A stretch of 63,980 bases of DNA, the filler included, from an uncultured Myxococcia bacterium (GTDB taxonomy: Bacteria; CAZTWC01), in NCBI GenBank assembly GCA_964617105.1. It is 3 parts of 3 records of this genome, joined end to end, with 100 filler letters (N's around TTAATTAATTAA, not from the genome) between each part and the next. Parts side by side here need not be neighbours in the genome. Positions count along the whole stretch, not along the records: positions 25,652 to 50,703 come from CAZTWC010000019.1; 2 more parts are not named here. One strand, given 5' to 3'. The position numbers and the translations under genes are program-made. Positions 29,823-45,383 of the stretch are shown piece after piece (within the stretch, counting starts at the first letter, position 1; every line of letters starts with the position of its first letter). Below the pieces are notes generated by a model, which had not been told where the DNA came from, searched no databases, and saw only the letters and a program-made list of their open reading frames with translations.

Positions 29823-30406
29823 CGATTTTTCCAAACTAGTTTGGTTAACTCTTTTCTTCCTCTGGCCAACCTTGAACGGACAGTGCCCACCGCTACCGAA
29901 GATATTGTGGCGGTTTCCTGGTAGGAGTGGCCCAATATATCGATTAAAATCAGGGTATCTTTAAAAGGGGAGGGGACTTTACTGATCAATAGGTGTAGAT
30001 TTTTGTCAGTTTCTGACTGAAAGAGGCTATCTTCTTGATTTATACTGCCCTCTTCAGCCACCTCTTCCAGGCCGATTTGGCATTTGGATTCCTTTCGGCA
30101 GTAATCTATAAAGGAATTGTAGATTATTCGCCAGAGCCAGGTGGAAAAAGAGGAATCGGCCCGCATCTTCTTGATCTTTAAAAATGCCTTGAGAAAACCA
30201 TCCTGGGCCAGGTCGGCAGCCAGTTGCCCGTTGCCGCCGCATATTCGCAGAGCATAGTTGTACACCTTCTGGTAGTGCTTAAGGGTTAATTGTTCAAAAG
30301 CATAGGAACTGCCAGATTGGGCCTGAACTAATAATTTTTTTTCCGATAAATTGGTATTTGACATAGGTTGTGGTTTGACAGGTGACTCTCTAACTATCCA
30401 GGTCAT
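29804..30406 (-). CDS. ECF-family RNA polymerase sigma factor
   Basis: Region 2 AADLAQDGFLKAF...SSFSTWLWRIIYN; region 4 GHSYQETA...VGTVRSRLARGR. Start may be ATG 30364. Confidence 0.92.
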   Translation of the reverse strand: MTWIVRESPVKPQPMSNTNLSEKKLLVQAQSGSSYAFEQLTLKHYQKVYNYALRICGGNGQLAADLAQDGFLKAFLKIKKMRADSSFSTWLWRIIYNSFIDYCRKESKCQIGLEEVAEEGSINQEDSLFQSETDKNLHLLISKVPSPFKDTLILIDILGHSYQETATISSVAVGTVRSRLARGRKELTKLVWKNRELFNR

Positions 30407-30881
30407 CCAGTATTTGATCTACCGAATTTTGATTTAGTCGCTTGGTGAGTGCATCGACTCCCGCTTCCCGGATAAATGATTTCAGGTATAGCACCAGATC
30501 GGAAACTTCCACTTCATTCATTTTATTCAGATATTCACTGACGGCAAATAGATCGTCCTCCAAATATTCCAAAATATCTTCAATCCGGTCACAACAGTCT
30601 AAAAAACATTCGAGGATATCTTTACTAAAGGTGATACGATGCAGATAAACCAGCCGGCTGCATTCTTCCATGGAATTGAGAAGATCGTTGATACTGGAGA
30701 TGTTGAGCACTGCAGCAGTTCCATTTATGGCAAATATTTCATCATAGATTTTCTTGAAATTATCAGTGGTCTGGTGATCCATTTTGACCTTCTGCAAGTA
30801 CATACGAATATTAAAAGACCCGTTGATACTGCTGTCTTTGAAGTCTACCAGATCGTCAAAATCTATATCTATCGCGCTCAT
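30390..30881 (-). CDS. Hpt/CheA-P1-like protein lacking the phosphoacceptor His
   Basis: IYDEIFAINGTAAVLN...INDLLNSMEE...ILECFLDCCDRIEDIL aligns by eye with the P1 consensus FRxxHTIKGxAxxLG...LxHxxE...D-LL---D. C-terminus LNQNSVDQILDDL. Confidence 0.6.
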   Translation of the reverse strand: MSAIDIDFDDLVDFKDSSINGSFNIRMYLQKVKMDHQTTDNFKKIYDEIFAINGTAAVLNISSINDLLNSMEECSRLVYLHRITFSKDILECFLDCCDRIEDILEYLEDDLFAVSEYLNKMNEVEVSDLVLYLKSFIREAGVDALTKRLNQNSVDQILDDLDS

Positions 30882-31060: not shown

Positions 31061-31088
31061 TTGACAATTCAGGTAAACCGGCTAAAAT
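31061..31088 (+). promoter_or_regulatory. Sigma70-like promoter upstream of motA
   Basis: TTGACA-N16-TAAAAT, followed immediately by TATAAT. Confidence 0.45.
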
Positions 31089-31176: not shown

Positions 31177-31255
31177 CTATTAGGGAAGATTTAATAATAA
31201 CTTAGAGAATTACTATGAATTCTGGTAAGCAGGATTTTTACCGGCGGAGGATATA

Positions 31256-32017
31256 ATGGATCTAGCAACTATAATTGGGTTGGTCGCTGCTTTCGGCCTG
31301 GTTTTAGGCTCAATTGCCGCAGGTGGCGGCTTGGCGGCCTTTATTGATGTCCCCTCTCTCTTTATCGTTCTTGGCGGAACCGTGGGTGCGGTGTTAATAA
31401 ATTTTCCGCTCCAAAATGTTACCGGAGCTATGAAGGTGGCTATGAATGCTTTTAAGTTCAAGTCGGTAAAACCGGACCAGATCATCAATGAGATGGTCAA
31501 CTATTCCAACATGGCTCGTCGCGATGGTATTTTGGCTTTGGAAGAGGTTTCCGGTTCCACACCGGATAAATTTTTAGCCAAGGGACTGCAACTGGCGGTT
31601 GACGGCCAGGACACCAAGGATATAGAGAAGATTTTAGAAACTGAAATTGAATATATTAAGCACCGGCACAAGTTAGGAGCGGATGTCTTCACCGCGTTTG
31701 GAACCTTTTTTCCTGCTCTGGGTTTGATTGGCACTCTGATTGGCCTGGTGGGTATGCTCCAGAACATGGATGATCCTTCCTCCATTGGTCCCAATATGGC
31801 TATTGCCTTGCTCACCACCTTTTATGGCGCTGTTTTTGCTAATCTGGTTTGCTTGCCAATTGCCGGCAAATTAAAAAACCGGGATTCTGAAGAGGTCTTG
31901 ATTAAGGAGTTGGTTTTGGAGGGTATTTTGGCTATTAGTGCTGGCGACAACCCCAGGGTGGTGGAGCAAAAACTTCATTCCTACCTATCACCAAAATTTA
32001 GAATTTCTCAATTTTGA
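31256..32017 (+). CDS. motA: Flagellar stator A subunit (MotA/PomA)
   Basis: MDLATIIG, ARRDGILALE, FLAKGLQLAVDG, PALGLIGTLIGL, IGPNMAIALLTTFYG, GDNPR. Confidence 0.95.
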   Translation: MDLATIIGLVAAFGLVLGSIAAGGGLAAFIDVPSLFIVLGGTVGAVLINFPLQNVTGAMKVAMNAFKFKSVKPDQIINEMVNYSNMARRDGILALEEVSGSTPDKFLAKGLQLAVDGQDTKDIEKILETEIEYIKHRHKLGADVFTAFGTFFPALGLIGTLIGLVGMLQNMDDPSSIGPNMAIALLTTFYGAVFANLVCLPIAGKLKNRDSEEVLIKELVLEGILAISAGDNPRVVEQKLHSYLSPKFRISQF

Positions 32018-32029
32018 TAGGAGAGCATT

Positions 32030-32737
32030 TTGGCCCGTAAAAAGAAAAAAGTGGAGGAAGAAGAGGGTGATAGCTTTATCGTTATGTTCACCTCCCTGAG
32101 CGTTATTTTGCTTGCTTTTTTTATTTTGCTCAATTCACTGGCGACTCCGGATGAAAAAAAGGAGCGGACAGCCCTGGGATCATTGGCCGGTGCTTTTGGT
32201 ATCCTTACCGGTGGATTTGGTTTTGATCCAAACACGGTTTATTTTGAAAAAGGCGCTCCCATGATCAAGGCATCGGAGGAAATCCAAATATTGATGAAAA
32301 AGGTGAAGCGGGGTATGGAGAAAATGGAATTTGCCACTGGGGTTGAATTTCACGAAACCGCCCAGGATTATCGTATATCTTTTCGGGACGGCCTTTTTTT
32401 TCAATTGGGCCGGGCAGAATTGGACCCGGTCAGGTTTCCGGTGTTGGATATTATTGCTCAGCATATAAAAAGCATCAGGTTTCCTGTGAATATTGAAGGC
32501 CATACTGATAGTTTGCTATCAAAAGGAGGCGAGAGGCAAAATTGGCTTTTGTCTACTCAGAGGGCTATGGCAGTTTTACGTTATTTCGAGGAAGCGGCTA
32601 AAGTTCGTCGTCGGTATTTGCAGGCTGGCGGCTACGCTCATTACCACCCCAAAGTGCCTAACACTACGCCGCAAAACCGGGCTCAAAATAGACGAGTAGA
32701 GATCGTTTTTATTAAACCTAAGTTCAGAAAGAGATAA
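32030..32737 (+). CDS. motB: MotB-like stator subunit 1 (TM Asp absent, canonical OmpA-like domain)
   Basis: TM FIVMFTSLSVILLAFFILLNS; IEGHTD, NWLLSTQRA, NRAQNRRVEI. TTG start with GGAG RBS. Confidence 0.85.
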   Translation: MARKKKKVEEEEGDSFIVMFTSLSVILLAFFILLNSLATPDEKKERTALGSLAGAFGILTGGFGFDPNTVYFEKGAPMIKASEEIQILMKKVKRGMEKMEFATGVEFHETAQDYRISFRDGLFFQLGRAELDPVRFPVLDIIAQHIKSIRFPVNIEGHTDSLLSKGGERQNWLLSTQRAMAVLRYFEEAAKVRRRYLQAGGYAHYHPKVPNTTPQNRAQNRRVEIVFIKPKFRKR

Positions 32738-33543
32738 TGGCGCAATCAGATATACAAAACTCCATGGATAAAGAGTTGGAGCGGCGGGAACGGGATGAGG
32801 AGAAAAAACCCAAAAAAGACTCGGGGGGGGGAGATGGTAATCCAAATGCTTGGATGATAACGTTTTCCGATCTGGTAAATTTGATGATCACTTTTTTTGT
32901 GCTGTTATTATCGATGAGTTCCCTGGACGCTAAAAAAGTAAAACAAACTTTTGAGGCTTTTTCAGAAGTAGCCTATGTTTTGCAAGGTTCTGAGTATAGG
33001 GAAGTACGTCCTGAGATTATTCAGACGGTAGACCCCTTTATTTTTTCCACCGTGGCCGAAGGATTGGTAAAATACCTCAAAGAGTCGGATGAAAAAGTCC
33101 GCCGGAGTATAATGCAAAAATTGGCAAAAACATTTGCACAGAAGGTTTTTCGTAAATTTATAAAAATAGAGGTGGAGAAAGAGCATCCAGAAGTATATTT
33201 GGCTAATAATTTATTATTTGTTGATGGCAGTGCTGAATTAAGTGAAGAGGCTAAGAAATTTTTACGGGAGTTTTCTGAAATTTTAAAGATCGATAAATTC
33301 AAACTCAGGGTAGAGGCTCATACCAATCTGGAGCCTAAAGATAAAAAGAGATATCCCACCAGTTGGGATTTGGCTTTGAACCGTTCGGTAAATGTGGTCA
33401 GTTTCCTGACTGAAAAGGTGGGAGTCTCTCCCCGGGATTTATCGGCCTCTGCTTATGGGGCGCCTTACAATATACCGGCGAGACATATATCCACCGACTT
33501 TGCTGAGAAACGGCAAGTTAAGTTGATATTGTTAAAAAAATAA
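32737..33543 (+). CDS. motB: MotB-like stator subunit 2 (TM Asp present, divergent OmpA-like domain)
   Basis: WMITFSDLVNLMITFFVLLLSMS; VEAHTN, SWDLALNRS, KRQVKL. TAATG overlap with the upstream gene. Confidence 0.85.
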   Translation: MAQSDIQNSMDKELERRERDEEKKPKKDSGGGDGNPNAWMITFSDLVNLMITFFVLLLSMSSLDAKKVKQTFEAFSEVAYVLQGSEYREVRPEIIQTVDPFIFSTVAEGLVKYLKESDEKVRRSIMQKLAKTFAQKVFRKFIKIEVEKEHPEVYLANNLLFVDGSAELSEEAKKFLREFSEILKIDKFKLRVEAHTNLEPKDKKRYPTSWDLALNRSVNVVSFLTEKVGVSPRDLSASAYGAPYNIPARHISTDFAEKRQVKLILLKK

Positions 33544-33638
33544 GATACTATACGTTCATATTTAATGGACTTCTTTCCAGTCAGGTTTTAACTTGCCGGG
33601 AAGTTATTTTTGTAAGCGCTCTAAGGAGGAAAATAGGA

Positions 33639-34217
33639 ATGCCCCCCGAAGACAATGAAGAAATGGAAGAAAATGAAGGTGAAAGTAAACCAAAGAAAAA
33701 GAAACCGCCTATTTTATTGATTATCGTTATTTTAAACGTAGTTATAATGATAGGTCTTCTGGTTTACTTGGTTTTGAGAATGCCATCTGGTAATACGCCA
33801 CCGCCGGCGCCGGCTGAAGGGGGGGAAGTTGCCCCAGCAGCAGCCGGAAGTGCGTCAGCGGAAAAGAGTACTGAAAGCAGCAAGAAAAAGGAAAATGCCG
33901 CCGATGTGCCCCTGAGCGAATTGATTTACAAGTTTAAAACTTTTATTGTCAATTTGAACGAAATTTCCGGCACCAGGTATTTAAAGACAGTAGTCGAAAT
34001 TGAAATGAGTAATGTAGAATTAAAGGAGGAGATCGAGGCTAAAAAACCTCGGCTCACCGATTTGGTCATCGATTACCTCTCAAGCCTTTCTTATGCTGAT
34101 ACTCAGGGTATGAGCGGCAAAGAGGAGATAAGAGAAAGTTTGCGCCACCGTATTAACCAGGTGTTGAAAAAAGGCAGAGTTAAGCGGGTATATTTTACCG
34201 AGTTTGTAATTCAGTAA
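33639..34217 (+). CDS. fliL: Flagellar protein FliL
   Basis: Single TM, FIVNL, RYLK, VYFTEFVIQ C-terminus. Confidence 0.93.
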   Translation: MPPEDNEEMEENEGESKPKKKKPPILLIIVILNVVIMIGLLVYLVLRMPSGNTPPPAPAEGGEVAPAAAGSASAEKSTESSKKKENAADVPLSELIYKFKTFIVNLNEISGTRYLKTVVEIEMSNVELKEEIEAKKPRLTDLVIDYLSSLSYADTQGMSGKEEIRESLRHRINQVLKKGRVKRVYFTEFVIQ

Positions 34218-34227
34218 AAGAAAGTAA

Positions 34228-35229
34228 ATGGAACAGATATTATCACAGTCAGACGTTAATGCCCTTTTATCGGCTGTTGAAGGGGGGCAGGTTGAGCAGG
34301 AGGAGCAAGAAGTCTTTCTGGAAGGGGATGTGGCCCCTTTCGACTTAACTAGCCAGGATAGAATTATCCGGGGCCGGTTGGCTAACCTGGAGATATTGAA
34401 TGACCGTTTCAGCCGTGTATTCAGGGTTTCTCTCTCAAATTCCCTGCGCAAAATGGTGGAGGTCAGTGTTGAGTCCACTGGGTTGATGAAATTCAGTGAA
34501 TTTTTAAGTTATCTTCCGGTCCCATCCTGTATAAATTTGCTAAAAATGCCGCCCCTCAAGGGCACCAGTTTGATCTCCATCGAGGTAAAATTACTCTATG
34601 GACTTTTAGATCTGTTTTTTGGCGGTACCTCTTATTTTACTCCCCATGCCAAGGTAGAGGGGCGTGATTTTACCGTAATCGAATTGCTGTTAATTAAGAA
34701 AATTCTTGATATTTTTCTCTATGACATCAAACAGATTTGGGAACCAGTATTTGCTATATATCCCGAATATATACGTACAGAAATAAATCCCCAGTTTGTG
34801 GTGGTGGTCCCGCAGACCGATGTGGTGATTAATTCCAGTTTTGAGGTTGAAGTTGAGCAGTTGCGGGGCAAGATTAACTTTATTATCCCCTATTCCATGG
34901 TGGAGCCAATTAAGCAGAAATTAACCGGCGGAGTTCAGAGTGAACAAATAGAAACCGATGATACCTGGCAAAAGAGGTTGGCAGTTCATATATTTGACAT
35001 GCACTCCAACCTGATTGCCCAGTTGGGAACTTCTAACATCACCATAGAGGAGTTCCTGACCATGCAAAAAGGGGATATTATTCAACTGGATAAATATGCT
35101 GATCAGCCCCTGGAGTTGATGGTGGAAGGTTCTTTGAAGGCTATTGGGCAACCTATGATTTATAAGAATAATTTGGCGTTGAAGGTTACTGGGTTGGTTA
35201 ATTGGGATCCATTAATCAGTTCTTCTTAG
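34228..35229 (+). CDS. fliM: Flagellar motor switch protein FliM
   Basis: ILSQSDVNALL, DLFFGG, RDFTVIE, EINPQFV, IPYSMVEPIK, SpoA C-terminus. Confidence 0.96.
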   Translation: MEQILSQSDVNALLSAVEGGQVEQEEQEVFLEGDVAPFDLTSQDRIIRGRLANLEILNDRFSRVFRVSLSNSLRKMVEVSVESTGLMKFSEFLSYLPVPSCINLLKMPPLKGTSLISIEVKLLYGLLDLFFGGTSYFTPHAKVEGRDFTVIELLLIKKILDIFLYDIKQIWEPVFAIYPEYIRTEINPQFVVVVPQTDVVINSSFEVEVEQLRGKINFIIPYSMVEPIKQKLTGGVQSEQIETDDTWQKRLAVHIFDMHSNLIAQLGTSNITIEEFLTMQKGDIIQLDKYADQPLELMVEGSLKAIGQPMIYKNNLALKVTGLVNWDPLISSS

Positions 35230-35519: not shown

Positions 35520-35849
35520 ATGGCTGATGAACAAGAAAACAACACCTCAGAGGAAAAAGAGGAGGAAACAACAGACATTCTTACAGAAGTTCCTTCTCTG
35601 AGGATGTTATTAGATGTCAACCTGGAGGTATCAGTGGAGTTAGGCAGAAGTAAGATGTTAATCAAAGAACTTCTGGACTTGAACGAGGGGTCAGTGGTGG
35701 AGTTGGCAAAATTGGCCGGAGAGCCTTTGGATATCCTGGTTAATAACAAATTAGTGGCCAGGGGAGAGGCTGTGGTGGTCAATGAGAAATTCGGTATAAG
35801 ATTAACCGATATAATAACTCCGGCGGAAAGGCTGGAAAAGTTAAAGTAG
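35520..35849 (+). CDS. fliN: Flagellar motor switch protein FliN
   Basis: LLDVNLEVSVELGR, GSVVELAKLAGEPLDILVN, ARGEAVVVNEKFGIR. Confidence 0.96.
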   Translation: MADEQENNTSEEKEEETTDILTEVPSLRMLLDVNLEVSVELGRSKMLIKELLDLNEGSVVELAKLAGEPLDILVNNKLVARGEAVVVNEKFGIRLTDIITPAERLEKLK

Positions 35850-35969: not shown

Positions 35970-37178
35970 ATGAAAGTTAAAATCCTATCGTGCTTACTAT
36001 TTGTATTTATTGCATTCTCTATCCCCGAGGCTTTTGCTTCTTCTGATAGGCAGGGGAAACTGAAGGCGGTAAAGATCCTCGATAAAGGGGATTATTTACA
36101 GGTCCATTTAAAATTCAATCACCGCTATCCCGCCAGGGCGCGCCGTATTTTATACAATAAGAATCGGCTGACTATCTTTTTACCGGTTCAGCAGAGCAGG
36201 GCCGAACTGGCAAATATCGTTACCTTTCCCTCTTCTTCAAGACCCCGCCAGTTGAAAAAAATTAATTTGAATCACCTGGACCAGGGTGGAGTAAAATTGA
36301 TCCTGAGCATGGATTATTCCATCATCAAGGTGGCCAAAGGGATTAAATCATCTATTAACGGCAATACTCTAATTTGTACCATACCTTATTATAATAGTTT
36401 TACTGCCCATAAGAGTAACAACGGGCGGACAGCACCGGCTGACTATGAAAGAAAAGATGCAGAGGAATCAGATAGAGTAGTATACGCCGGCAATAGTAAT
36501 GATAAGCCCAACCGCCAACCGCATAAAAAGAACAAAAACCGAGCAGAGTTGAACAAGATTCGGGAGATAATCTTAGGCGGTGATGAGCAAGAAGAGAAGG
36601 TGAAAAATCTAAAACCAGTAGTTGAAGATCAGCATGCCCCAAATGGTCAGGATGATTTAGTGGAAGACCAGGAGGGGGCACGGCTCCTGGCGGCTCTCTA
36701 TCCCTCAACCGGTAACCCTGCGGTTAAAGCGCCCAAAATCAAAGTTAAAAAAGATGCCTTCACCCCCATGAAAATGCCCCTGGCCCTGGTGATTACCATA
36801 GCCTGCTTTTTCGCCTTTATGGCCCTTTACAAGTATTTTCAGAAAAAGGGGAGTCCCACTCTGACCGACACGGAGTCAATTGAGATAATTTCCAGGAGAA
36901 ACCTGGGTAATAAACAGCAGTTGGCCCTGGTAAAAGTGATGGGTGATACTCTGTTGATCTCTTCCGGTGACCAGGGGATCTCCCTGTTGAGCCGGATTGG
37001 CATAAACGGGGATGATGATAAAGTGTCACAGTTTTTGCAAAAAGATAATGTTAGTCTAGAAGGTCCATTTGCCCAGCAATTGAAGCGGGCCAAAAATGAA
37101 CTGGTCCAAAAACAGCGGCCTATAGATTCCATGGTTGATAGTATCAACGACAAGATTAGACAATTACAGAGTATTTAA
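35970..37178 (+). CDS. fliO: FliO with large N-terminal exported domain
   Basis: Located between fliN and fliP. Signal peptide (AFA|S), TM near residue 270-290, then IEIISRRNLGNKQQLALVKV...LLI...ISLL (FliO pattern). Confidence 0.75.
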   Translation: MKVKILSCLLFVFIAFSIPEAFASSDRQGKLKAVKILDKGDYLQVHLKFNHRYPARARRILYNKNRLTIFLPVQQSRAELANIVTFPSSSRPRQLKKINLNHLDQGGVKLILSMDYSIIKVAKGIKSSINGNTLICTIPYYNSFTAHKSNNGRTAPADYERKDAEESDRVVYAGNSNDKPNRQPHKKNKNRAELNKIREIILGGDEQEEKVKNLKPVVEDQHAPNGQDDLVEDQEGARLLAALYPSTGNPAVKAPKIKVKKDAFTPMKMPLALVITIACFFAFMALYKYFQKKGSPTLTDTESIEIISRRNLGNKQQLALVKVMGDTLLISSGDQGISLLSRIGINGDDDKVSQFLQKDNVSLEGPFAQQLKRAKNELVQKQRPIDSMVDSINDKIRQLQSI

Positions 37179-43647: not shown

Positions 43648-43853
43648 GTAGCGAACCTCAATACCCACTCCCCTAAAATTGACCTTTCCCTTTTATTAGA
43701 AACTGTGTTATTGATATAACCTAAAATTAGTTATTTACAGTCTCGGCCATTGAGCAAATCGTTGACTTAAAACATAATGATATCAACAAGTTGTTTAGAA
43801 GTGTTGATATTTGGTAATTGCCTGTATTGTTCAAAAAAGGATTAAACCAGCCA

Positions 43854-45383
43854 ATGACAAACAGTAATTCAACTCAAACGGCGGCCCCTGGGGGAAATCG
43901 GGTCTATCAATATTTCGACCGGGTTTGCTCTAAAATAGAAAACACTGAATTCAATGCTACGGTGTATATTTCCGTAGTTATGCTGGTTGGTTTCTGCCGG
44001 GTTATCTTTGAGGTCCTCTTCCAGGGAGAAGTTGCCCTTGATATGGATGATCTTTGCAACTGGCCGGCTCTCTACCTGGTGCTTGTACCTGTTTTTGTGG
44101 TTTGGATGTCCCCCCTGTTAAAAATGCCCCGGGAAAAACTATTTAATATAGTTTTGGTAGGCACCCTGTTTGGGGTCTTGCCCCCGGTTTACGATATCTT
44201 TTTAACCGGTTGGTGGAAAGCCACCTATGCCTATCACCTACAAACCCCTTGGCATTTTTACGCGCCTCCCGCACTTCCTTTGGGAGAAGCCGCCACCGTA
44301 TGGTCAACCATTGTATTTACCACCGCCTATATTGCTTTTCGCTCCAAATCAATAATCAAGACCCTGGCGGGTATATTTTTAAGTTGGCTATCGCTTTGGG
44401 TGCTCAGTCAATCCTATCTCTATGCCTTATATCTGTTTAAACTTATGAGGTTCAGTGATGAACATATGATGGGTGATCGACCCTTGACTTTCTTATATAT
44501 TTTGATCTCTCTCTTTGCTTATATCCTGTTTAACTACCAGCGATTCAAATATTCTTTCAAACGGATACTCCACTGCTTGCCCTGGTTTTTTCTAACCCTA
44601 ATCGGAGGAAAACTGGTGGGAAATGTGGCATCAATTACCGTGTTATTAGGATTTGTGGTAAGTCTCTTTTTTATGATGGTGATGATCCAAAACGACTATT
44701 ACGATAAAGAATCGGATAAAATAAATAAGCGGGAATCCAGAATCAACCAGCAAGATGTGGATTTTTTTCATTATCTGATGCTGTGGTTGGCCATCTTTTT
44801 TTACTTTGTAACCGGTACCTAGCTAGTTACTTTCTTATTGTTCATCTTCCAGATTATCACTCTGCTTTACCACCACCCGTCGACCTATTTTAAAAAGGTA
44901 TTTCCTATCTCTTATTTTATCGAAGGTGGCGCTGCCACCATCGCGGTCGCCATTGGCTGCATGATTGAAGTGGGGGGGCCTAAGAATATCACCAGAGATG
45001 GCTACATAATAATGATCTGCCTGTTACTGGTATTTCTCGGTTTTTCCTGCTCCTCCCCCATGAAAGACTACAAAGATATTGAGGGCGACCGGGCCACAGA
45101 CACCGATACACTCTATGTTTTGTGGCAGAAGTGGGGTGGCAGGATAGAAACAGCTCACCTTCTGATTACCATAAACCTGATTATCTGTAACATCGTGCCT
45201 CTTATTTTGGTGCTTGAACGGCTGGGCCTGGCGCTGACCATTGGATATGGTTTGGTAATCTCCGTTCTTTTTTACCTGGCCATGACTCAAATCAAAGATA
45301 AGTTTTTAACCGTTGAAGCGGGATTGGTTTTAGTTAATTTCAATCTGTTGTTTATATTTCTTTTCTTTACTTCGCCATTTTAA
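43854..45383 (+). pseudogene. UbiA prenyltransferase-like membrane protein interrupted by one in-frame TAG (44820-44822)
   Basis: ORFs 43818-44822 and 44838-45383 are in the same frame (ACC GGT ACC TAG CTA GTT ACT TTC TTA TTG). Asp-rich motif 1 NDYYDKESDKIN precedes the stop and motif 2 KDYKDIEGD follows it. Confidence 0.7.

Follow-up and report, generated by a model that had tools for sequence, protein, structure and literature searches.

One motA, two unlike motBs: a conserved aspartate-less MotB paralogue in flagellar operons and the possibility of a heterodimeric stator with a single ion-binding aspartate

Does a flagellar stator need an ion-binding aspartate (Asp) in both halves of its axle? 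The question is raised by a flagellar locus of an uncultured Myxococcia bacterium (GTDB lineage CAZTWC01; assembly GCA_964617105.1), in which one motA gene is followed by two different motB genes, motB1 and motB2, whose products are called B1 and B2 here (Table 1). The locus lies in a stretch of 63,980 nucleotides (nt), filler included, which was analysed at its full length and is referred to as the window. An earlier note on this DNA had seen complementary defects in the two B proteins, with B1 lacking the transmembrane Asp and B2 being altered in its peptidoglycan-binding motifs, and had proposed an asymmetric dimer of one conducting and one anchoring chain. Judged from sequence, the operon is one instance of a widespread, old and selected type, and a MotA5:B1:B2 stator with a single Asp is its best reading, to which we give about an even chance.

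All three stator proteins have the domains to be expected from their names. MotA matches Pfam MotA_ExbB (101.6 bits) and MotA_N (33.8 bits), the domains of an A subunit; B1 matches OmpA with 51.4 bits and MotB_plug with 34.3 bits (MotB_plug cut-off 24), and B2 matches MotB_plug with 64.4 bits and OmpA with 49.9 bits, the latter well above cut-off. B1 aligns over its full length with the solved MotB chain 6ysf_A and, in phmmer searches against solved chains, its Ser22 falls on the transmembrane Asp of MotB (6ysf_A) and PomB (8bri_F), the same Asp on which Asp45 of B2 falls in both structures. No acidic residue is found along the whole transmembrane segment of B1. Loss of the Asp from B1 and its retention in B2, as read in the earlier note, are thus borne out at residue level, as is the canonical peptidoglycan-binding domain of B1, with EGHTD (residues 156-160), NWLLSTQRA (171-179) and NRRVEI (220-225) all in place. 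The corresponding motifs of B2, namely EAHTN (193-197), SWDLALNRS (209-217) and KRQVKL (258-263), are indeed altered; the 'defect' this implies is mild, however, because B2 retains the Arg of its LSxxRA-type motif and scores far above the OmpA cut-off. The earlier note had named the NRR Arg as a peptidoglycan ligand; in the A. baumannii OmpA-peptide structure the ligand Arg is reported to be that of LSxxRA, which B2 has kept. In sum, B1 has the MotB_plug signature, an OmpA-like domain with its Asp and Arg, and a place next to motA in a flagellar cluster, all of which mark MotB/PomB proteins, and lacks the transmembrane Asp.

Identity between B1 and B2 is 22%. Common to both families are the transmembrane register ..L..(I/L)LL(A/T)FF(I/V).L.. 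and a similar conservation profile, highest in the membrane segment and followed by the plug and the OmpA domain, the invariance of the membrane motif in the Asp-less set being partly due to construction of the motif-seeded scan described below. Within the plug of B1, Ser51 is a position at which 51 of 51 Asp-less proteins agree.

Ser22 of B1 is not a peculiarity of one genome. A search of 5.8 billion proteins with B1 returned 3,332 matches at E <= 0.001 among 4,319 candidates, and the Asp column is without Asp in 113 of the best 120 homologues (S 57, A 38, T 10, G 8) and occupied by Asp in 7; since the Ser/Ala/Thr/Gly state is common to 113 of these 120, Ser at this position is more than chance. 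When a profile of 41 Asp-less members was run against 1.84 billion representatives at 50% identity, 8,184 matched at E <= 1e-30, the best 150 of which comprise 62 without Asp, 68 with Asp and 20 unalignable at the transmembrane segment. According to their source names, members stem from metagenome-assembled genomes (MAGs) of Deltaproteobacteria, Desulfobacterales, Proteobacteria, Nitrospirota/Nitrospiria, Candidatus Tectomicrobia and Candidatus Scalindua. Two of them (P0261, P0288) are located on contigs of 4.8 and 5.8 Mb, so that closed genomes, too, carry the Asp-less gene. Their annotation at source is 'MotB' or 'OmpA family protein', indiscriminately, and neither B1 nor B2 scores above the cut-off of any NCBIfam model. 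Full-text literature searches returned no description of an Asp-less MotB paralogue, with supplements and subscription journals not covered by them and a prior description therefore possible; the terms 'aspartate', 'D32' and 'Asp32' are absent from the main text of a 2025 mBio survey of MotAB diversity (PMC12505986).

The profile matches also brought up proteins of other build. Several very long ones (P0121, P0122, P0123, P0146, P0164), of 760-1,580 aa, consist in part of OmpA-like domains in tandem, 3 to 7 per protein, without a MotB membrane segment, and score highest against the C-terminal part of the Asp-less profile. Candidates for B1-B2 fusions of the Rosetta-stone kind, suggested by long matches in multiple stretches, turned out to be OmpA-repeat proteins or Asp-bearing proteins with N-terminal extensions, and no such fusion was seen among the profile matches. 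Some Asp-less members (P0083, P0098, P0261, P0265, P0282, P0288, P0303) share a conserved aromatic-rich tail, F.(F/Y)(K/R)GF.F.LF, which follows the OmpA domain and is absent from B1 of the window. Searching genome contigs with B1 as single query gave one weak OmpA-domain match, in a Bdellovibrionales MAG (L001). A degenerate DNA pattern for the transmembrane motif matched 72 of 401 genomes of the phylum of G001; among about 88 matches, none of the 30 loci fetched held a MotB-like open reading frame (ORF), and these hits were dismissed as chance in AT-rich genomes, with no instance of the two-motB layout among those searched. In G001 itself, a MotB_plug search found one ordinary MotB beside a MotA.

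Is the Asp-less gene found next to an Asp-bearing one elsewhere? We obtained 80 metagenome loci by scanning contigs seeded on the Asp-less transmembrane motif, 77 of which contain an Asp-less B, and the other three (L065, L066, L079) an Asp-bearing B only, L065 being an ordinary motA-motB-fliL-fliM operon. With 13 of the 77 ending less than 200 nt from the gene and one (L072) dropped as truncated or chimeric, 63 could be judged. Each of these 63 has a second B adjoining the Asp-less one (62 by blastp, and the diverged L027 by ORF listing), and the Asp is present in this second B in 62, the N-terminus being off the contig in L073. The Asp-less gene comes first in 55 loci and the Asp-bearing (Asp+) gene in 8, the clade with reversed order matching proteins named Candidatus Scalindua sp. 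MotA, in a single copy, is encoded directly upstream of the B pair in 57 of 58 evaluable loci, and fliL follows it directly in 47 of 47. The junction between the B genes is mostly tight: when the second B is taken to begin at the candidate start closest to the stop of the first, the distance is -20 to +15 nt in 47 of 61 loci, a heuristic biased to short distances. The TAATG overlap of motB1 and motB2 described in the earlier note is present in the window, with one base shared. Frames are intact in all complete Asp-less copies. The note had suggested a survey of motA-motB-motB loci for the same reciprocal pattern; what recurs is the pairing of an Asp-less with an Asp+ chain, whereas a reciprocal defect in the anchor is limited to the clade of the window. 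Desulfovibrio vulgaris Hildenborough, with motA, an 'OmpA family protein' and motB at DVU0050 to DVU0048, may have this layout as well.

To see which chain loses its peptidoglycan-binding residues, 57 pairs with both domains on the contig, window included, were scored for Asp in GHTD and Arg in LSxxRA. Both chains are intact in 27, only the Asp-less one is altered in 19 and only the Asp+ one in 11, and 0 pairs have both altered where independence would give 3.7 (Fisher one-sided p = 0.0065; this overstates the evidence and bounds it from above, since related loci are treated as independent). Losses from the Asp+ chain cluster in the clade of the window. Among 8 Asp+ partners tested, Pfam OmpA goes unmatched at E <= 0.01 in three (L034, L046, L058), and two more, L027 (25.0 bits) and L069 (18.8 bits), fall under the OmpA cut-off of 27.2; beside the OmpA-less Asp+ chains, the Asp-less chain retains a canonical OmpA domain. 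A homodimer of such OmpA-less chains would therefore be without recognisable cell-wall anchor. Losses from the Asp-less chain lie in the other clades, including the entire Scalindua-named one, where purifying selection on the Asp-less gene persists despite the lost OmpA motifs, with a ratio of nonsynonymous to synonymous substitution rates (dN/dS) of 0.10-0.18. Because the Asp-less chain has lost peptidoglycan residues in 19 of the 57 pairs, anchoring cannot be the conserved role of B1. Hence, the division into a conducting and an anchoring chain fits the clade of the window, with its degraded Asp+ and canonical Asp-less OmpA domains, but does not hold in general, given 27 pairs with both intact and 19 of the reverse kind.

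As a group, the Scalindua-named members (L063, L073-L076, L078, L080, L081; P0318, P0327, P0328) have the Asp+ gene first and an Asp-less chain from whose OmpA motifs Asp and Arg have been lost along with the RR pair.

In a maximum-likelihood tree of 135 B sequences (232 columns including the membrane column, quick search), all 70 Asp-less proteins fall on one side of a single branch (SH-like approximate likelihood ratio test, SH-aLRT, 96), such that one change suffices to explain them. The Asp-less and Asp+ subtrees mirror each other and repeat the same locus groupings, which suggests that the genes duplicated once, long ago, and have diverged in step since; for the deep split this is suggestive evidence but no proof, because the membrane column is among those used and the tree search was quick. 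Among close pairs whose dS is unsaturated, the Asp-less gene has a dN/dS of 0.10-0.31 and its Asp+ partner one of 0.13-0.30 (0.03-0.30 over all listed pairs), next to 0.08-0.30 for FliL and 0.03-0.08 for MotA as neighbours. Near-duplicates (L024, L044, L081) were left out of two comparative alignment sets, and so was L007. By its substitution pattern, B1 is a conserved and selected Asp-less paralogue of MotB.

This bears on the simplest alternative, namely that B1 is a decaying, functionless duplicate of MotB. It is true that B1 lacks a residue regarded as essential for ion flux, yet the Asp-less genes evolve under constraint like that of their neighbours, go back to a single loss event with deep co-divergence thereafter, make up at least 62 clusters at 50% identity and have intact frames in all complete copies. 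So decay of B1 in relatives, which the earlier note had named as speaking against its proposal, did not turn up, and to the extent that dN/dS, tree and cluster counts can reject it, a decaying B1 is rejected and to our minds scarcely credible.

Two other observations concern the base of the tree. At 5926-6645 of L066, downstream of a MotA, lies a MotB that has the Asp in a membrane motif otherwise typical of the Asp-less family; its long branch joins the tree basally on the Asp-less side, and it could be an intermediate or a reversion. A basal Asp-less subgroup (L002, L005, L011, L025, P0010, P0046) keeps the canonical MotB Trp and the Thr-Phe just before the lost Asp, has Ser or Gly in place of this Asp, and is paired with Asp+ chains that fall among ordinary-looking MotB proteins in the tree; it looks like an early stage of divergence.

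How might the two chains work together? In the reading that we prefer, five MotA subunits would surround an axle made of one Asp-less B1 and one Asp-bearing B2, with B2 supplying the sole ion-binding carboxylate and B1 the second central helix together with the strongly conserved plug. In the lineage of the window, B1 would also provide a competent peptidoglycan anchor, and one ion site, instead of two alternating ones, would be coupled to rotation of the MotA ring. Such a one-unit axle is the simplest reading because of strict pairing, a single MotA, the pattern of anchor residues that are never lost from both chains, Asp+ chains devoid of an OmpA domain, and the helix and plug that B1 has kept. 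Conservation of this helix, in the same register as that of B2, and of the plug points to parts which, in solved units, are seated inside and atop the MotA ring. In a predicted complex of B1 (12-235) and B2 (34-268), based on 51-row alignments, the interface score ipSAE (interaction prediction score from aligned errors) was 0.57 as against 0.07 for the best of 3 controls, with at least 80% contact agreement between runs and a predicted local distance difference test (pLDDT) of at least 61 for the partner, a result that counts as weak support. Out of 80 solved complexes, 58 reach the mark used for such predictions, as do 2 out of 110 mismatched pairs; at 0.60 or under, it is reached by only 7 of the 80 solved complexes plus both of the passing mismatches.

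Instead of sitting in the axle, B1 may be an accessory outside the ring, with MotA5(B2)2 as the working stator. Its helix would then lie on the outer face of the ring, or its periplasmic domain on B2, FliL or a periplasmic ring, where it would add to or regulate anchoring in a manner that resembles TonB/TolA on ExbB/TolQ or MotY in the T-ring. This scenario would account for strict pairing and for anchor residues never lost from both chains while retaining the two-Asp mechanism, and is in keeping with fliL always being 3' of the B pair (47/47) and with ExbD-TonB periplasmic heterodimers, which form through the domain by which ExbD also homodimerises (PMC9389320). It accords less well with B1 having kept the MotB_plug signature (34.3 bits) and the MotB transmembrane register, and with a plug which aligns with that of PomB and has Ser51 invariant, features that make sense only on top of and inside a MotA ring; moreover, known accessory proteins are not plug-bearing MotB paralogues. 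We consider the accessory role unlikely, though by no means negligible. Alternatively, two homodimeric units might share MotA, one being MotA5(B2)2 for torque and the other MotA5(B1)2, which would conduct no ions but serve as a placeholder or brake, or regulate the occupancy of the rotor by stators. Here, the 27 of 57 pairs with peptidoglycan residues kept in both chains are as expected, as is the Aquifex aeolicus motA/motB1/motB2 case, where each B, as a chimera, works with MotA on its own (PMC4525482), and stator swapping between isoforms is established (PMC9039648). What makes this arrangement a distinctly improbable one to us is that a B2 homodimer would be unanchored where the Asp+ chain has no detectable OmpA domain (L034, L046, L058), that in 19 of 57 pairs, including the whole Scalindua-named clade, two B1 chains together could provide neither conduction nor anchoring although the gene is kept at dN/dS 0.10-0.18, and that the two chains never lose their peptidoglycan residues together.

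Several points weigh against the MotA5:B1:B2 stator as well. An axle with one Asp is mechanistically unprecedented, and substitutions of Asp32 in E. coli MotB are dominant-negative, which suggests that a canonical stator is poisoned by a chain without the Asp. In current models of MotAB, two Asp have to be protonated in alternation (bioRxiv 10.64898/2026.04.14.718414). The 27 pairs with both chains anchor-competent fit two separate homodimeric units equally well, and scoring by Asp and Arg is crude, in that other motif parts are missing from the 'intact' Asp+ chains of L012, L019, L020, L052 and L069. Co-assembly draws weak support from one prediction, which is confounded by homology and may reflect mere likeness to solved MotB/PomB homodimers. 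As the loci were seeded on the Asp-less motif, they do not give the share of this layout among flagellar operons; the single-MotA counts are those of the window and the loci, and further MotA/MotB sets may exist elsewhere in the genomes. Finally, one locus, L052 (3009-4295), has no adjacent motA; it is the sole locus with a flgE-like hook gene upstream of the B pair, and its motA must lie elsewhere.

To our knowledge, all solved 5:2 motors have a homodimeric axle. The canonical units among them, MotA5MotB2 and PomA5PomB2 (6ysf, 6ysl, 8bri, 8zyv), belong to the same families as the proteins described here, with the same domain order, and have in common with them fliL/fliM/fliN as neighbours, a PomA/MotP-like MotA and the Asp of B2; in contrast to their homodimer axle with two Asp, there are two B genes per A gene here, one of which never has the Asp. 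The Aquifex aeolicus operon likewise has one motA followed by two motB genes with strongly different periplasmic regions, but its B proteins are 97% identical in their transmembrane/N-terminal regions and each, as a chimera, supports motility with MotA (PMC4525482), whereas B1 and B2 share the low identity given above and one is without Asp. The gliding motor AglR-AglQ-AglS of Myxococcus also joins one MotA/TolQ-like subunit with two different MotB/TolR-like ones (PMC9389320, PMC11761067). Its heterodimeric axle, AglR5:AglQ:AglS, is an AlphaFold prediction rather than a solved structure (PMC11761067), and PMC9389320 ascribes a conserved Asp to both AglQ and AglS and states homo- versus heterodimer formation as unknown. 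The Agl motor differs from the MotB pair by being non-flagellar, by TolR-type instead of OmpA-type periplasmic domains, by having no MotB plug and by Asp in both chains. ExbB-ExbD-TonB and TolQ-TolR-TolA combine a 5:2 motor with a third, envelope-linked single-pass protein that has no Asp (PMC9389320); unlike B1, neither TonB nor TolA is paralogous to the axle subunit. Dual stators (MotAB + MotCD, MotAB + MotPS, PomAB + MotAB) also bring more than one B to a flagellum, but there each B comes with an A gene of its own and no B is without the Asp (PMC9039648).

As for the ion that may drive such a unit, the best NCBIfam model for MotA is PomA (NF006527; 305.9 bits, cut-off 341), followed by MotP (252.3 bits, cut-off 394), and the MotS model gave 91.5 and 94.5 bits against a cut-off of 264, so that MotA and the B proteins stay below the cut-offs of the Na+-type PomAB/MotPS models. 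Sodium coupling, as raised in the earlier note, is possible, with MotA nearest to the PomA model though below its cut-off, and with DNA runs matching the window being marine or seawater metagenomes; the type of ion cannot be read from these data.

In the window, the three stator genes run in the same direction and head a cluster of fliL-fliM-fliN-fliO-fliP-fliR-flhB-flhA-flhF, with a long fliO and an flhF-like GTPase as its flhF. No second homologue of MotA or MotB is found elsewhere in the 64 kb window. The TTG start of B1 (32030) lies 4 nt past GGAGAG at 32020-32025 and its N-terminus, MARKKK..., agrees with that of homologues. DNA contigs of public runs from two studies show 0 differences across the motA-B1 junction and the B1 transmembrane segment (31200-32279), and contigs covering the B1-B2 junction (32589-33700) likewise show 0, one run of which may be the window's own source; the sole variant across the stretch is G>C at 32588, inside motB1, in a contig of one public run (X3). 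On the opposite strand, 5' of motA, are a 163-aa ORF without Pfam match and an ECF-type (extracytoplasmic function) sigma factor. Promoter-like sites number 7 in the region as compared with a mean of 6.3 in shuffles, hence no excess, and the site upstream of motA is a lead only.

Table 1. Features of the motA-motB1-motB2 locus, in window positions
Feature	Position	Strand	Description
Promoter-like site	31061..31088	+	TTGACA, 16 nt, TAAAAT; 11/12 match; 5' of motA
motA	31256..32017	+	253 aa; PomA/MotP-like A subunit; Pfam MotA_ExbB and MotA_N
motB1	32030..32737	+	235 aa; Asp-less MotB paralogue; TTG start, transmembrane segment, conserved plug, canonical OmpA-like domain
Ser22 codon of B1	32093..32095	+	TCC; at transmembrane Asp position of MotB/PomB
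Plug motif of B1	32171..32200	+	ALGSLAGAFG, residues 48-57; aligns with plug region of PomB 8bri_F
Peptidoglycan-binding motifs of B1	32495..32704	+	EGHTD, NWLLSTQRA, NRRVEI; all canonical
TAATG	32735..32739	+	Stop TAA of B1 (32735-32737) and ATG of B2 (32737-32739), one base in common
motB2	32737..33543	+	268 aa; Asp-bearing MotB paralogue; OmpA-like domain altered
Asp45 codon of B2	32869..32871	+	GAT; aligned transmembrane Asp; invariant in 51/51 Asp+ partners
OmpA-like motifs of B2	33313..33525	+	EAHTN, SWDLALNRS, KRQVKL; Asp to Asn, Arg kept, RR to RQ
fliL	33639..34217	+	Directly 3' of motB2; Pfam
fliM	34228-35229	+	Pfam; same conserved gene order
fliN	35520-35849	+	Pfam; same conserved gene order

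Three further genes of the window stand out on their own account. The fliO-like gene (35970-37178, + strand) is unusually long, encoding 402 aa of which Pfam FliO covers residues 296-375 only, which leaves an N-terminal part of about 290 residues, signal-like at its start, without explanation. The 163-aa ORF mentioned above (30390-30881, - strand) is acidic and divergent from motA, and a 334-aa ORF (43818-44822, + strand) that comes after the flhF-like GTPase has no Pfam match either.

What would this mean for the flagellar motor? That there is a widespread natural stator with an obligate heterodimer axle and a single ion-binding Asp, distributed by source names over Desulfobacterota-type bacteria, Nitrospirota, Tectomicrobia and Scalindua, is a claim we make tentatively, at slightly less than an even chance. 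If true, rotation of the MotA ring would depend on a single ion site in each unit, with, say, one ion per 72 degrees versus one per 36, and the Asp-less chain would be a fixed, plug-bearing half of the axle, peptidoglycan-binding or not; with one site, the motor would need half as many ions for a turn, which would change the ratio of torque to ions. Should B1 be an accessory after all, the outcome would be a new class of MotB-derived stator accessory. Stator counts in Desulfobacterota-like, Nitrospirota and anammox genomes are probably inflated, because sources name Asp-less and Asp+ proteins without distinction. With one axle gene that never has the Asp, this natural, ancient and strongly selected stator locus offers a test of whether alternating protonation of two sites is obligatory.

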